Positions 3,001 through 9,000 of a stretch of 15,108 bases of DNA are shown here, in pieces (positions within the stretch are counted from its first letter, which is position 1; each line of letters starts with the position of its first letter). The stretch is from assembly GCA_046497485.1 (NCBI GenBank), contig JAWOFP010000019.1:1-15108 (forward strand), in the 5' to 3' direction. The stretch comes from Candidatus Nanohaloarchaea archaeon. Lineage in GTDB: Archaea; Nanohalarchaeota; Nanosalinia; Nanosalinales; Nanosalinaceae. The position numbers are program-made.

Positions 3001-6000
3001 GAGAAGGGATTTAATTACTGGGAGGATTCCTTTAGAGACTTGATAAAGGAAAATATAGAATTTGTTAAATGTGCGTGGGATAGGCCTCCAGAATTCAGTA
3101 TTGAGATTAAAAATTTGGTAAAATATCTGCCTAATGCTGAGCCTGTTATTCTTCATCATGACAACCGGCTTGAAAATCTGATTTTGCAGGACGATAAAAT
3201 TGAAGGGTTCCTTGACTGGAGTTTTACTCGCGCCGGTCACTCCGAGTATGACTTAGTTCTTGCAGAATACTTGTTGATTGACTGGGATCTATCATTCAGG
3301 AAAATTGGTAATACTGAAGATTTGAGAAAGAAGCTTTTCCAAGGGTACGCTGAAATCACAGGTTTTAATCGGGACGATGATTTTGAAATTAGGAGAAGAA
3401 TTTATCGCTATTCTATCGTTATTTGGCTTATGGCAGGCCTTCCTAACTGGGGCCCGGAGAACCCTGAGAGGTATAGAGAGTTAGAGAAAGATTTAGAGTC
3501 TCGATTGCTTGAAATTGAGGAAAAACTTTCAGACCTTTGAAAACGCATAAATACAGGCCTTGGTCAATCTAAGTTATGGAAGCCATCTTTCTGAGTTTAG
3601 GCTTTGCTTTTCTGATAGGCCTAGTTCACTTTTTCGGGGAGGAGCTAGATGAATATCTTAATTCTAAACACTTGCTTTTGGCTTCTTTTTCTGCAGGTCT
3701 TACTGTGTCCTATTTCTTCCTAGCGATGCTTCCAGAAATGTCTAAGGCCTCTGTAAATCTTGAGTATGAGTTTTTGTTTGCTTTAGCAGGTTTCTCATTT
3801 TTCTACATTGTTGAGGAGCTGATTTATCAACGAGAATCAAATCTTTCAGAGGTTAAGAAAGAATTCAAGGAGCTTCATTCCGCTTTCATTTTCTCATACC
3901 ATTTTGCTATCGGATTTCTGATTTACTTTCTGATGGAGCAGGGACAGAGTCAGGCCTTACTATTCTATATCCCTGTTCTGGTTCACACAGCTGTTAACTC
4001 ATTGGCGATTAAGGAGATGCATGAAGAGATGCTGGACAAGCTCTGGATTAAGCTTTCTGCGTCTTTTTCAGCAGTCTTAGGCGCCATCACAGCTTATTTG
4101 GTTGATCCTTCGCAGTTTGTTTCATACTCTGTCTTTGGATTTATAGGAGGAATGTTTCTCTACATAGTTGTACACGATGCATTAGATCCTAAGAGAGAAA
4201 GGCCTATAGGTTTCATAATTGGCGCAACGATTTTTTCAATCATTGTGTTCTTGTTATAACCTTATTAACTGAGAAAGTAATACAAAGTATTATGGCATTC
4301 CTCTGTATAGATATAGGCGGTACTAACACATTGATAGGCCTTGGAAATGGAGATTTTGAGGAGAAAAAGAGGATTAAATCCAGAGAGTTTTTGTCTGATA
4401 TAGATGGTTGTATTCAGGGAGTTGTCGATAATGCCGGTTATTCAAAAGAGAATATTAATCAGGTAGCAGTGGCTGCGGCAGGACCTATGAATAGAGAAAA
4501 GGGCGTATTTTATCCTCCAAATTTGTCTGAGGATTCCGAGCTTGATGAAGTACAGTTAAGAAAACCAATGGAGGCGTTTGGAGAATTACATATAATAAAT
4601 GATTGCACGGCTGCAGTTAAAGGAGAATATGAATATGGTGCCTCTGCGGAAAATATGGTTTACATTACTATAAGTTCGGGCATAGGCCTTGGAGCAATAT
4701 TCAATGGAGAGATAATAGAGGGTGCTGATGGAAATTTCGGGGAGATAGGCCATATGAAAGTAAACGGAGACCTAGAATGCGGGTGTGGAAGAAAAGGGCA
4801 CTGGGAGGCGTATTCATCAGGAAATAGGTTGCCTGTAATGGCTAAGAACCTTTTTGACTTGGAGTATGAGGGCGCTATTGATCTTTTCCAGGACTACAAC
4901 TCCGGAAGTTCTGAAGCTGCAAAAGTAATTGAAAAAATGCAGGAGGTAAATGCTGAGGCCTTTGCAAATGTGATTAGCCTCTATAATCCTGAAAAAATTG
5001 TGTTTGGAGGGCCTGTGGCGTTAAATCATACTGAGATAGTGATAGATGAGGTAAGAGAGGAGATAGAGAGGAAAGCAGTGAATGAGATGCCGGATATTGT
5101 TCCGGCAGAGCTCAGTGATCAGTCCGTCTTACATGGCTTGAGGGCTCACTGTAACAAGAATTAGCTTTCTTTAACGTCTGCTACGTCGCCTAAAGTTGCT
5201 TTTCGGTCGTCTCCGGATTCAACACTGTGATCTGAGACTTCAGGATTAACATAGAGGGTTACTTCAAGTTCCTTTGAAAGCTTCTTGGCAAGCGACTTCT
5301 CAGGCTTCAAGTCCTCTCTCTCAATCTTCTTGATCAATGAGGCCTTCTCGTTTAGTGAGTCTGCTAGCTCGTTGATACTTAATTTTCTATCTTCTCTGGC
5401 TTCCTTCACTCTAGTCCCGTAATCGTTGGCTAGGACTTGAGTGTCTTTAGGCCTGTAGGTCTTCTTTTTCTTAGCCTTCTTAGTCTTCTTTTTCGGTTGC
5501 TCAACTTTCTCGCCCATGTCGCTGCATGAGTCGCAGACTTTTAGGGTGGCGCCTTCTATCTTGGTTTTCTGTAGTTTGTCAGAATCTTTTCCGCATAACT
5601 GGCATGATGGCATCTAAAGTTTTCACATCAAAATAGAGTTTAGTTTACAGAATTTACTTTTTGTGTTCATCTGGCTCTCTATCCAGTTTATGCTTTCCGA
5701 ATTAATTTAAAACCTGTTTTCTATTTTCCTAACTTTCTCAGTATCAGCCCATAGCCTAGAGCTGAAACAGCTATTACCATGAATCCTGCTGAAAGGAAAA
5801 GGAAAGGATCAGTCAAACTTAATTCTAGGCCTGTCTCGGTCGCTGTTTCAGTGCTTTCCATCATCATTGTCCCTGCTCTGGAGGATGCAGAATCGTTACT
5901 GAAGGCTTCTCCCGCTACAGGGTATAGAAGGCCTACTCCTGCAGCCCCTGTGACAAGCGATGATGCTATGGAGAACTTGACTTTTTTCTCCCTGCCGTTT

Positions 6001-9000
6001 ACAATAGCTTCGGCTTTTCTAGTCGGGCTGTAAACCACTCTTTTTCGGCCTTCTTCCTCATCTCTTTCAAGTAGGCCTGATTCGACTAGAGTGTCCATGT
6101 GGGAGGATATTGTAGACTTGCTTTTACCGACTCTATCCGCTGTATTTGTAGGTGTAGCCTCGTTTTTCAGGGCGTGAGCTAGAATTTCTATTCTTGTAGG
6201 AGAAGAGAGAGCCTTTACGGTTTTGAAGTCCAAGTTCATATACTATAATTAGATTCATGGAGCTTTTTGAACCTGTCTTTTTGTTCGATTATATTCGAAT
6301 CAAAACCAATTTTTTCTTCAAAATTGGCTTGTTGAATCCTCACGGATTGTTTTAACGGGTTTAACACCCGTACCTATAAAAAAGAGGCAAGACAACTGTT
6401 AATTGGTGAATTATCTATGGTAGACGTACTAAAGAAGTCAGGCGTTCGTGACGCAGTAAGCGAATCAAACGTCGGAGCAGACTTCTACGAAGCTCTTGAT
6501 GAGCAGGTAAAAGAACTCATCTCAAGAGCCGAAGAAAGAGCTCACGACAACGGACGCAAGACTCTGAAGTCAAGAGACGTATAAATTCAACTTTATTTTG
6601 CAAGGGGAGGGACAAGAGGCCTGTGAATGGTCTCTTAAATCCCTTGTCACTCTTTATTCTATTTAACTTAATATGTTTCTGATTGAAAAATGCATTCTTT
6701 TAGGCCTGAAACCTGTCTTACAAGGCTCTAACCTATAAAAACCAGTTAACCTCATTACAAGATAAGGTGAAAAAATAATGGCAGATGTACTAAAGAAGTC
6801 AGGAGTTCGTGAAGAAGCAGGAGATATGAATGTAGGAGGTAACTTCTACGAGAGACTTGATGAAAGAGTCAAGGACATGATCTCCAGAGCCAAGGATAGA
6901 GCTCAGGACAATGGACGAAAGACAATCAAAGCAAGAGACGCATAAAGGCCTTTTCCAGGCCTAAAAATAGTTTTTTACAGTTCTTCCTTTCTTCTTTCTT
7001 TTTCGTCAAACTTTTCTTCTAATAAGTTCAGTGATTCTCTAAGCTCTTCTACTGCGTCCATGCTCTCAATCGGCAGTCTTCCTAGATCTCCGCCGTTGAC
7101 TTCAATATAGAATTTTCCTTCCTTCTGAATAACCTCATAATTCATTACTTTGTACGGCCCGTCCTCAAAGCTGTAGATGCTCTCCATAACTATCAATTAT
7201 GTAAGAAGGATTTTAACTCCTTTTATCTAAGAAAACTATGTGAGCCCTAGAAACAGGCCTGAGGAAAACGGCTGGATTGAAGTCATAACAGGATGTATGT
7301 TCTCAGGTAAAACATCGGAGCTTCTTGAAAGAGTTAAGAGAGCCGAACTATCGGGTCATGATGTTAAACTATACAAGCCGGCTGTAGATGACCGTTATGG
7401 AGAAACTGAGATAGGAAGCCATAATGGAGAGACAAGGAAAGCTGAGGTGGTTGAGGATGTCTCGGAAATCAGGCCAGAAGCATATGTAATTGGAATAGAT
7501 GAAGCCAATTTTTTCGATAACGAACTTGCAGGTAAAGCCGAAGAATTAGCTGATGAAGGTCATAGAGTGATTATTTCAGGCCTGGACTCAACTTTTAGAG
7601 CTGAGCCTTTCGAACCTGTACCAGAACTAATGTCGAAGGCAGAATTCATCGATAAACTGAACGCAGTCTGTGTTAAATGCGGCAGCACAGCAAATAGAAC
7701 TCAGAGAATAGTTGATGGCAAACCAGCTCATGTAGACGATCCTACTGTTGTGGTTGGGGCTGACGAAAAATATGAGGCTCGCTGTCGTTCATGTTTTGAA
7801 ATTAGAACTGATTAATTCTATCTAAAGTCTTATCTAAGGCTTTACTCGCTTCTTTCTCACTTTCGGCTTCTGCAATAACTCTTACTTTTGGAGAGCTGCC
7901 GGAAGGCCTTACAAGCACTTCCGCATCTTCTTCCTGGAACTTTACTCCATCAAGATCAGAAATAACTTCTACTTCTTCTTTCAAGTCCTCAATAACTTTC
8001 TCTTTGTCTTTTACTTCAATACTTTCTCTCTCAACATGATAATCTGGAATTCTATCAAGTCTTTCAGCTAGATTCAGTTTTGAAAGAATTAGAGCTGCCA
8101 AGATCCCTGAGTTGTAAGGAATAAAGTCTGTGAAAGAATAATGTCCATTTGGTTCCCCCGCAAGCTCCGCATCTATTTCAAGAGCTCTATCCATGACAAA
8201 AGGGTCTCCTACACGCGTATAATCGATTTCCCCAAACTCTTCCAAGGCCTTACTTGTATCTATTGAAGCAACTATTTTACCCTCTACTAGTTGGGCTAGA
8301 ATGCCGAAGATTTCATCACCTGTCAAAAACTTATCTTGATGATAAACTGTGATCCGGTCAGAGTCGAGATCAAATGCCAGGCCTAAATCAGCATCTTCTT
8401 TCTCTACTTTCTCCTTCAGAGGCTCCAAATTCTCAGGTTTAGGGTGGGGAGGGTCAATGTAAGGCCTTTCTTTGTCTGATATATCGATCACTTCATGGTT
8501 TTGAGATTCCAGCAACTCTGGCAGTATCCGTGCCTCTCCACCCATTGATTCAAATACGATCTTCTTTCCAGAGGCCTCGCCAAATTTTGAAGCAAACTCC
8601 AGTATTTCTTTCTTGTATTCTTCAATTAGATTATTCTGAGTTACTTCGCCAGACTGTGAAGTAAAGTTATTCTTTCTGAATAAATCTTGAACAGTGTAGA
8701 GATCCTCATTGACAAATCCATTGCCTTGTGGATACATGAACTTGAAACCATTGAAGTTCAGAGGCATGTGGGAAGAGGTTACCTGGACTGAAATGCTATT
8801 TTCTTTTTTTCCGCACCAGGCCGCATAGTCTGTCGGCCCAACACCTACATCAACTACATCGGTTCCAACAGAATTCAGGCCTTCAATTAAAGCAGTTTTT
8901 AGAGGCTCAGAAGACTCCTTATTATCTCTACAAACTACAATTTTTCCAGAATAATTTCTGGCGCTGAAAGTTCCTAAGGCCTTTCCAAGTCTTTCCGCAA

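Follow-up and report, generated by a model that had tools for sequence, protein, structure and literature searches.

A putative membrane-anchored winged-helix regulator and its palindromic operator ahead of exported-protein genes in nanohaloarchaea and other archaea

Results

Features of the locus

The window analysed here is a stretch of 15,108 nucleotides from a Candidatus Nanohaloarchaea archaeon (contig JAWOFP010000019.1). It carries a regulator gene, g00136, with a palindrome and a degenerate TATA element in the promoter region.

5721..6239, minus strand: regulator gene g00136, 172 amino acids (an ArsR-type winged helix joined to a membrane hairpin and ending in a short basic tail)
6000..6239, minus strand: winged-helix DNA-binding domain, about residues 1-80 (Pfam matches; pLDDT 85-96)
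5916..5975, minus strand: TM1, about residues 89-108 (hydrophobicity and orthologue alignment)
5814..5915, minus strand: disordered loop of about residues 109-142, predicted to lie outside (alignment, low pLDDT)
5739..5813, minus strand: TM2, about residues 143-167, then a YG..RKL tail (alignment, hydrophobicity, structure model)
6264..6271, minus strand: degenerate TATA element TTCAAAAA, -32 to -25 of the regulator promoter (sequence; A-run conserved in orthologues)
6283..6300, no strand: palindromic operator, GTTCG-N8-CGAAT here and GTTCG-N8-CGAAC in the consensus, with its end 11 bp above the TATA element (orthologue promoters)

The genome-wide survey's note had described the g00136 product as an ArsR-type winged helix with two hydrophobic helices, and the open reading frame, its domain matches and both helices bear this out. 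Residues 11-59 match the Pfam families HTH_20 (3.4e-08) and HTH_5 (3.8e-07) with scores that exceed the cut-offs (33.8 versus 27 bits and 30.3 versus 22 bits), and the recognition helix reads KSKSTISSH. The protein contains no Cys, and His only at positions 22 and 47. Therefore, it has the ArsR-type winged helix without the Cys/His metal site of ArsR/SmtB proteins, and its score against NCBIfam HTH_metalloreg (42.2 bits) lies below the cut-off of 55.

The first membrane segment is weakly hydrophobic and contains many S, G, A and T residues. Among 34 orthologues, mean KD19 is 1.6 for TM1 versus 2.2 for TM2, and small residues make up 49% versus 37%. TM1 of distant homologues is more hydrophobic (2.2), and so any argument from a weak TM1 is limited to this lineage. 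A basic stretch, (R/K)KVKFS, is conserved just N-terminal of TM1, with 4.7 K+R ahead of the segment, and such positive-inside counts suggest that the loop faces outside. This loop varies from 26 to 74 residues among orthologues, has no conserved residue, and is rich in Ala, Ser, Glu and Met (18% A and 5.8% M, versus 6% and 2% in the proteome). Its pLDDT falls below 50 at residues 117-140.

In the structure model, one unbroken helix joins the winged helix to TM1, leaving no space for a HAMP or sensing domain. In joining a DNA-binding domain to one or more predicted TM segments within a single chain, the regulator has the architecture by which Demey et al. define transmembrane transcription regulators (TTRs); it would also be expected to control transcription from the membrane or following release from it, as TTRs do. 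A search of solved structures returned nothing akin to it apart from generic ArsR domains. No longer fused homologue scored, which is weak evidence in itself, and neither a DUF4349 nor a beta-propeller fusion occurs among 12 long or reversed homologues.

The operator palindrome and its position

A GTTCG-N8-CGAAC palindrome had been placed 61 bp before the g00136 start codon and just upstream of TATA. The distance is correct when measured from the distal edge to the ATG, and the box does end 11 bp above the TATA element of what is probably a leaderless promoter. The sequence, however, departs from the consensus by one mismatch. Taken alone, the window box is within chance, as 29 of 200 shuffles of the window also yield one. 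Our recount of orthologue promoters agrees with the earlier figure of 29 boxes in 30 at -59 to -64, the remaining promoter being masked; 22 of these are exact, six have one mismatch and one has two. Of 16 held-out orthologue promoters that could be read, 14 likewise carry a box, and the pattern occurs in 46 of 50 family genomes versus 5 of 50 for a reversed control. The regulator gene itself had been credited to 49 of the 50 genomes, of which 42 are strong matches (E<=1.1e-19) and the other seven are weak matches to HTH paralogues.

In the source genome (G000), a matrix trained on other genomes finds nine sites scoring at least 11. Because this equals the Markov expectation (6-13), the signal is one of position and not of count: five of the nine sit 60-61 bp before an ATG. 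The five genes are the regulator, a 181-aa gene on contig C52, and genes of 552, 150+ and 264 aa on contig C48. We equate the 181-aa, 552-aa and 150+-aa genes with g00953, g00823 and g00822, judging by position and cumulative length, and the 264-aa gene is a box-led target missing from the earlier list. That list also included g00655, taken here as the 593-aa gene of contig C38. We reject this member, whose -58 site scores 6.6 (background level) and whose gene was found in none of five kin searched. Just 3 of 20 g00822 orthologues have a box, which makes this gene a sporadic member of the predicted regulon. A perfect motif match at C32:36901 is a hairpin stem in the ftsZ leader with no gene at -61. 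The warning that tRNA T-arms mimic the box proved apt, and matches in tRNA-Val T-arms on C10 and C12 were discarded.

Genes preceded by the box

Gene-first tests were made for four families. The most conserved target is the secreted Cys-pair protein (g00953 family), with a box in 29 of 30 cases. The PF09826 beta-propellers (g00823 family) have a box in 9 of 11, and further beta-propeller loci in 8 of 12. Two orthologues of each family had been reported previously, which understated the association. DUF4349 genes carry a box in 23 of 30 cases, often divergent from the regulator, and in many genomes a single box is common to the two genes arranged back to back. For a C-anchored Ig/NEW3 surface protein, the count is 20 of 26. 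Sporadic targets include PspC, SIMPL, proteins resembling PrcB_C and BsuPI, and an ABC ATPase of the LolD/MacB type. An N-terminal hydrophobic segment is present in 110 of 118 non-regulator box-led ORFs versus 212 of 933 genome-wide, and in 17 of 25 box-led ORFs outside the four searched families.

The secreted Cys-pair protein gives a confident beta-sandwich model with no clear fold match (best Z 5.1, NigD-like). Foldseek returned nothing at E<=0.001, and the ESM Atlas returned unnamed clusters only, under 0.9. Kinship with PrcB_C, to which hhalign assigns 10%, is unsupported.

The corrected member list drops g00655, treats g00822 as sporadic, and adds DUF4349, the Ig/NEW3 protein and others. 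The original notion of a one-component envelope regulon is well supported by phylogenetic footprinting, by the box shared between regulator and DUF4349, and by the retention of box and regulator in distant archaea. A role in envelope stress seems to us slightly favoured. The same genes could instead serve the building or remodelling of the surface for attachment and feeding, including host contact in symbionts. Nanohaloarchaea are ectosymbionts, and Ig/NEW3 and other surface-displayed proteins are among the targets, as such a role would predict. We nevertheless regard it as unlikely, given that PspC, SIMPL, DUF4349 and protease-inhibitor-like targets suggest envelope upkeep, and that box and regulator also occur at loci labelled Thermoplasmata, Bathyarchaeota and Thermococci, groups not known as ectosymbionts.

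Conservation beyond nanohaloarchaea

Among distant homologues (33-37% identity), the palindrome precedes 52 of 69 genes versus 0 of 69 in each of two controls, although these loci are not independent because 59 of 74 belong to one clade. Homologues with a box are labelled Thermoplasmata and Aenigmatarchaeota, and their boxes lie 12 or 14 bp above TATA. At Bathyarchaeota- and Thermococci-labelled loci, the box stands before neighbouring envelope genes. A box scoring at least 14 is found near 10 of 16 outlying loci versus none in 20 shuffles at each.

Boxes in genomes where no regulator was found

Two profiles found no regulator in genomes G058, G059 and G060 (91, 91 and 85% complete), which have strong boxes (18-21) ahead of beta-propeller genes; HtrA synteny gave no explanation for the absence. 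The same pattern, a strong box ahead of a beta-propeller gene and no regulator found, recurs in G054. In G045 (one contig, 98%), the syntenic site lacks the regulator and a box scoring 20.1 is still present. Such boxes, and the use of the motif core by another family (MsvR), would be compatible with a different, soluble factor that binds the box and counts the membrane protein merely among its targets. This we consider very improbable. The box accompanies the regulator into distant lineages, no box scoring at least 10 lies near 13 soluble HTH paralogue loci, four of the five genomes concerned are incomplete, and the seeming absence in G041 is a frameshifted regulator copy directly behind its box. 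We predict with high confidence that the regulator itself binds the box.

Activation or repression

MsvR of Methanothermobacter and Methanosarcina is the closest biochemical precedent. Its ArsR-type winged helix is homologous to that of the regulator (E 4.2e-10, residues 6-70, the second-best NCBIfam match), and both proteins have TTCG-N7-9-CGAA ahead of their own gene and upstream of TATA. MsvR binds this motif by EMSA, the motif alone being insufficient (PMC3729527). Among proteins that use this core, MsvR alone is known to have been tested biochemically, and it is described as a repressor that binds upstream of TATA (PMC3729527). Unlike the regulator, MsvR is soluble and bears a Cys-containing V4R redox domain. 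The regulator, for its part, is anchored by a membrane hairpin, its box keeps strictly to an N8 spacer flanked by G/C, and its predicted targets belong to the envelope. We found no V4R match and no Cys in the regulator, where MsvR has three conserved Cys, and the MsvR model NF053755 scores it at 39.7, below the cut-off of 220.

Boxes in nanohaloarchaea end 11-15 bp above TATA, and constant spacing of a palindrome directly above BRE/TATA is the arrangement that marks the activator TFB-RF1 (PF1088) of Pyrococcus furiosus (PMC5937170). TFB-RF1 also resembles the present system in autoregulation, a tiny regulon and membrane targets, and differs in its motif, TCTGAANTTCAGA (PMC5937170). Promoter quality is unequal: TWTAWA is matched by 1 of 34 regulator promoters versus 49 of 70 target promoters. 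Activators of the TFB-RF1 type go with a weak BRE at their targets, and the BRE comparison at target promoters here gives scores of 0.17 versus 0.25 (p=0.36) and purines of 38% versus 53%, with a background BRE signal that is itself faint.

A repressor on the MsvR pattern would hinder TFB loading just above BRE until a membrane signal or proteolysis removed the bound dimer. The shared motif core, the homologous winged helix, the canonical TATA at most targets, and the MsvR boxes, which are located upstream of TATA and have been proposed to obstruct BRE, are all consistent with this reading. Against it, the box leaves the BRE position free, its spacing is tightly fixed in all lineages, and the regulator's own TATA is degenerate. 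A weak further indication comes from one gene in one genome: the g00953 orthologue of regulator-less G045 has 10 derived changes versus 2 in a sister genome, with neighbours at 28 versus 25 (p=0.10, two-sided), the faster change that one would expect of a target no longer switched on by its activator. On balance, repression appears to us a minority prospect, and it is likely that the regulator activates transcription.

Discussion

Taken together, these observations are best explained by a membrane-gated, self-amplifying activator of an envelope-maintenance regulon, possibly freed by proteolysis, a reading to which we assign a probability of roughly 0.58. An MsvR-like winged helix would bind GTTCG-N8-CGAAC as a dimer, as the dyad suggests, and one helical turn above TATA this dimer would recruit the basal machinery (TFB/TBP). 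The regulator would thereby turn on its own weak promoter, creating positive feedback, along with a handful of proteins that are exported or anchored in the membrane. The set may serve envelope maintenance or stress, the work of ECF sigma/anti-sigma pairs in bacteria.

Because the hairpin lacks a ligand-binding fold, proteolysis would be the most likely gate. A first cut might fall in the disordered outside loop and a second, intramembrane cut in the weak TM1, freeing the DNA-binding domain. The source genome encodes HtrA as well as a pair each of M50 and rhomboid proteases, but the presence of these enzymes does not discriminate because 12-14 of 14 control genomes also match; the protease search did not find PrsW. 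We place proteolytic release at somewhat short of even odds.

The same activator and regulon might instead operate while tethered, in the mode of ToxR or ArnR, with DUF4349, the beta-propeller or the Cys-pair protein binding the loop to tune dimerisation or shield it from proteolysis, and with cleavage turning the regulator off. ArnR/ArnR1 of Sulfolobus acidocaldarius is likewise an archaeal one-component regulator with an N-terminal winged helix, two C-terminal TM segments and surface genes as targets (PMC12107092, PMC10269533). Its cleavage is reported to inactivate rather than activate (PMC12107092). TTRs often have protective partners (PMC10269533), DUF4349 lies head to head with the regulator over one box, and within an Aenigmatarchaeota-like clade this position beside the regulator is occupied by the Cys-pair protein instead of DUF4349 (5/5). 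The continuous helix in the model could also pass on a conformational signal. There is no universal partner, however, since DUF4349 is present in 32 of 70 genomes and absent from the source genome, and the loop is variable and has no conserved residue. We consider tethered action less likely than not. ArnR differs further in having sensing and HAMP domains and in controlling archaella and pili, whereas here the winged helix passes straight into TM1 and the outside loop is long and disordered. The ArnR model NF041016 gives no regulator match at E<=0.001, and one homologue scores 18.9 against a cut-off of 400.

Our preferred scheme of a membrane-gated activator also recalls two non-homologous systems. 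SREBP is a eukaryotic bHLH protein freed by site-1 and site-2 proteases, and it too has a DNA-binding domain at its N terminus, a two-helix hairpin and a short outside loop; the archaeal cleavage is only proposed. To our knowledge, archaea have no sigma factors, and the likeness to ECF sigma/anti-sigma circuits is one of analogy, not homology. SigW/RsiW and SigV/RsiV similarly provide membrane-gated, self-amplifying control of exported proteins, PspC among them. In the archaeal system, by contrast, sensor and DNA-binding domain would reside in one protein without a sigma factor. DUF4349 and Beta_propel, which are ectodomains in putative bacterial anti-sigma factors (ECF25, ECF218s8, ECF266; PMC7826278), are encoded in the archaea by separate genes that the box is predicted to control. 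A bolder and distinctly tentative idea is that an ancient hairpin winged-helix family (DPANN, Thermoplasmata, Bathyarchaeota, Methanococci and others) could form the archaeal counterpart of the ECF circuit. It would have one operator and SREBP-like proteolysis, and its targets (DUF4349, beta-propeller, SIMPL, Cys-pair) might be stand-alone anti-sigma ectodomains feeding back on the Ala/Met-rich loop.

The earlier statement that no paper describes the system stands for the system as a whole, while the motif core had already been printed for MsvR (PMC3729527). Our literature search found no description, and family members may figure in supplementary lists of the TTR survey, which lay outside that search. 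The same survey names ArnR as the only characterised archaeal membrane-anchored regulator (PMC10269533).

Regulator and operator are conserved from nanohaloarchaea to unrelated archaeal groups, and thus probably constitute a widespread switch through which gene control in archaea is coupled to the cell surface. A regulator, an operator, a spacing rule and a target list are now defined for putative surface control in several archaeal phyla, and DUF4349, PF09826 and one unnamed family of secreted proteins gain an initial context. The circuit is one of few retained by sub-megabase symbionts. Moreover, the genetic model Methanococcus maripaludis S2 encodes a regulator homologue (CAF30193.1 / Q6LZJ0), and therefore the sensing of envelope damage in archaea is directly testable.

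The regulator gene and its operator

The gene at the centre of this analysis lies in the window, which is contig C8 of the source genome G000 (967,558 bases in 66 contigs), and its relatives are labelled Nanohaloarchaeota in the databases.

Features of the regulator locus
5721-6239, minus strand: regulator gene, 172 aa, ArsR-type winged helix
6283-6300: operator box, one mismatch to GTTCG-N8-CGAAC
6417-6584, plus strand: first of two tandem 55-aa genes, own TATA
6778-6945, plus strand: second tandem 55-aa gene, own TATA

The regulator gene is flanked by an MBF1-like gene on one side and by two small genes, presumably histone-like, on the other, and in 31 of 37 relatives' loci each of these neighbours lies no more than 4 kb away. 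The tandem 55-aa genes, which we take to resemble short archaeal histone-fold proteins, stand outside control by the box because it is too far from their TATA elements. The sequence AGGCCT is visibly recurrent across the window.

Taken alone, the site at 6283-6300 could arise in the window by chance, as it does in 29 of 200 shuffles, and we consider it real because it is conserved in orthologue promoters. As the genome-wide survey's note had reported, the box lies at -59 to -64 (bp before the start codon) in 29 of 30 such promoters, the single miss being masked DNA, and in alignment all ten core positions are nearly invariant while the spacer is free. A held-out set comprised 17 further orthologue loci outside the matrix training, and among the 16 that were readable, 14 carry a box scoring at least 15 at -58 to -64. 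Within this set G062 has no box, its regulator gene lying downstream of another gene in an operon, and G050 has a variant box, GTTTG-N8-CAAAC, at -69. The divergent regulator at this last locus (L205, G050:C17) has the recognition helix HKSTIVEH and is followed in an operon by a SIMPL protein gene; variant helix and variant operator are possibly one case of protein-DNA co-variation. The survey had matched the gene in 49 of 50 family genomes; strong orthologues occur in 42, the other seven being weak matches to paralogues. Outside the family, 12 of the 20 genomes searched also have the regulator.

Box-led genes in the source genome

Scanning G000 with a matrix built from 28 other genomes yields nine sites that score at least 11, a count that is not raised, given that a Markov model yields 6-13. 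An ATG follows five of the nine by 60-61 bp, and a per-gene scan finds four genes scoring at least 10 at 57-65 bp, versus 0-3 in 14 other distance windows.

Box-led genes of G000
Regulator: box score 20.7, 60-61 bp before ATG
181-aa secreted protein gene, C52: 21.1, 60-61 bp before ATG
Multi-pass membrane protein gene, cut by contig end, C48: 15.5
264-aa membrane-anchored protein gene, C48: 14.1, absent from the survey's list
552-aa lipoprotein-like protein gene, C48: 11.9

The 593-aa gene on C38, which we take to be one of the members previously named, is not counted: its -58 site scores 6.6, and the gene was found in none of five kin. The original observation is largely right, its member list partly wrong, and the range of the system much wider than stated.

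The end of C57 and the start of C48 overlap by ~190 bases, so that the multi-pass gene can be followed into C57, where it encodes a polar C-terminal domain. Separately, a ~230-nt ftsZ leader (C32:36880-37107; L033:480-708) with a TATA-like element upstream folds into at least five hairpins (z -2.94; 1 of 200 shuffles reaches this stability), the first stem being a perfect GTTCG-N8-CGAAC; it has no match in Rfam.

The regulon across nanohaloarchaea

The box-plus-TATA pattern recurs in 46 of 50 family genomes, versus 5 of 50 with a reversed control, and the genes that it precedes fall into a few families.

Box-led families
Secreted 181-aa family: without Pfam match; PCH and a second Cys conserved, amphipathic helix at the C-terminus
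DUF4349 family
Ig/NEW3 family: signal peptide, C-terminal anchor
PF09826 beta-propellers: family of the 552-aa gene
One or two cases each: PspC, PrcB_C-like, BsuPI-domain and lipoprotein-like proteins, ABC ATPase

To avoid circularity, genes were also retrieved by protein or Pfam search and their upstream DNA was checked afterwards. The box precedes 29 of 30 secreted-family genes (30 loci taken from 54 matches), 9 of 11 beta-propeller genes (8 of 12 at further loci), 23 of 30 DUF4349 genes (3 unreadable, 4 negative) and 20 of 26 Ig/NEW3 genes (4 unreadable, 2 negative; some loci redundant). Among other ORFs in the secreted-family and beta-propeller sets, 5 of 78 scored, all of them regulon members or divergent box-sharing neighbours. 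Only 3 of 20 multi-pass family genes carry the box, as do 2 of 4 from the 264-aa family. Many genomes place a single box between the regulator and DUF4349, ~61 bp from both starts; DUF4349 is absent from G000. An N-terminal hydrophobic segment begins 110 of 118 non-regulator box-led ORFs, versus 212 of 933 genome-wide, and 17 of 25 box-led ORFs outside the searched families. We put the probability that this regulon is real at about 0.9.

Four genomes have boxes but no regulator that we could find. Strong boxes precede beta-propeller genes in G058, G059 and G060 (85-91% complete) and the secreted-family gene in G054; two profiles found no regulator in any of the four genomes, which we count against our reading. 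G061, a fourth genome in the genus of G058, does have the regulator. At loci of soluble HTH paralogues, none of 13 has a box scoring at least 10. The absence of the regulator from G041 is only apparent, a frameshifted copy lying directly behind the box. The G061 regulator (L457, G061:C43) lies tail to tail with a second copy of the HtrA/PDZ protease gene and close to a gene that is presumably S-layer-like; at 2201 there is another strong box, without a gene at -61.

Other loci deserve mention. In L459 (G053:C1:238500-244000) a two-gene unit is duplicated in tandem with a strong box before each copy (24.9, 25.2), and its 380-aa gene, without a match in Pfam, begins with a twin-arginine-like motif. 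Strong boxes with correctly spaced TATA elements at L110 (G016:C135 end), L112, L117, L119-L122, L135 and L062 have no ORF of at least 45 aa at -61, and may reflect small proteins, RNAs or frameshifts or, for L110, a second regulator start at the contig end. In the secreted family (alignment A1) and in a PrcB_C-like box-led protein (L130:1559-2029) the chain finishes with an amphipathic helix whose last residues are GLF or GLL and which may tether the protein to the membrane or S-layer.

Distant homologues

A profile search returned 957 representatives at E<=1e-10, among them named homologues from Methanococcus maripaludis, M. voltae, M. vannielii, ANME-1, Archaeoglobales, Aenigmatarchaeota, Bathyarchaeota and Thermoplasmata. 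Most of the distant matches listed keep the wHTH-TM-loop-TM order and the same Ala/Glu/Met-rich loop. Nine collected proteins (P0074, P0088, P0112, P0114, P0126, P0135, P0141, P0143, P0147) have a reversed architecture, the same wHTH lying C-terminal behind a TM helix, with varied outer domains such as VIT-VWA in P0112.

A metagenome set held 80 distant-homologue loci, 74 with a start and 69 with sufficient upstream DNA. In 52 of these 69 the nanohaloarchaeal matrix reaches a score of at least 10 between -56 and -76, versus none with shifted or reversed controls (0 of 69 each), at a wHTH identity of 33-37% and with the box 12 or 14 bp above TATA. Because kin are not independent, the 52 represent a handful of lineages rather than 52 events. 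The larger of two clades (49 of 59 loci with the box) has a neighbouring ribosomal protein labelled Thermoplasmata; the smaller (5 of 5) groups with an Aenigmatarchaeota protein, and here the regulator shares its box with a divergently placed homologue of the secreted 181-aa family. Of 16 outlying loci, six have no box within the flanking DNA examined, and in the remaining 10 one scoring at least 14 lies nearby (0 of 20 shuffles each). The genes behind these boxes encode SIMPL at a Bathyarchaeota-labelled locus, a CGP-CTERM-like Cys-rich protein at a Thermococci-labelled locus, and further membrane proteins.

Direction of control and proposed membrane gating

The regulator probably acts as an activator. 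With its end 11-15 bp above TATA, the box is placed as it is for the activator TFB-RF1 (PMC5937170, in part), and 33 of 34 regulator genes have a degenerate TATA of their own; both count for activation. Repression is the alternative, and MsvR represses from upstream of TATA (PMC3729527, in part). A comparison aimed at weak BRE elements in target promoters gave no significant difference from background (0.17 vs 0.25, p=0.36), where the BRE signal is itself faint. The one-contig genome G045 bears on both sides: only ~350 bases remain where its regulator gene should lie, and one target evolves faster (10 vs 2 derived changes; neighbours 28 vs 25; p=0.10), as would be expected of a target left silent by the loss of its activator, but this target still keeps its box. 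Searches of G045 for DUF4349, Ig/NEW3 and beta-propeller genes gave no match.

A fold model predicts a confident wHTH, a helix running unbroken into TM1, disorder at 117-140, and TM2. The concentration of basic residues ahead of TM1 and behind TM2 leads us to place the loop outside; its lack of conserved residues and variable length (26 to 74 aa) make a ligand pocket unlikely. In nanohaloarchaea TM1 is weakly hydrophobic with many small residues, unlike the TM1 of distant homologues. G000 encodes HtrA, two M50 and two rhomboid proteases, of kinds that are near universal, and has no match to PrsW. We tentatively rank proteolytic release first among gating modes, at somewhat below even odds; tethered action with a partner comes second, at slightly lower odds. 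By eye, many targets (A1, DUF4349, beta-propeller) have Met/Ala/Ser/Glu-rich low-complexity stretches after the signal or TM helix that resemble the regulator loop, and these could compete with it for the same protease or partner.

Relation to known systems

MsvR binds TTCG-N7-9-CGAA by EMSA (PMC3729527, in part) and is the second-best NCBIfam match of the regulator wHTH, far below cut-off. With this operator core already in print, binding is supported and the motif is no longer novel; the membrane hairpin, the spacing rule and the envelope targets are not features of MsvR. ArnR likewise joins a wHTH to two TM helices, but it has sensing and HAMP domains in addition. Cleavage reportedly inactivates ArnR (PMC12107092, in part), and the accessible text of a survey of transmembrane transcription regulators names it as the sole characterised archaeal case (PMC10269533). 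Subscription papers aside, we found no description of the regulator-operator-target set in the literature. By its architecture the protein studied here is a putative transmembrane transcription regulator whose DNA-binding domain is of the MsvR type, outside the MsvR, ArnR and metal-sensing ArsR/SmtB groups. Putative anti-sigma factors of the ECF25, ECF218s8 and ECF266 groups also contain DUF4349 and Beta_propel domains (PMC7826278 supplement, in part). As the role of the regulon we lean, by a modest degree, toward maintenance of the cell envelope.
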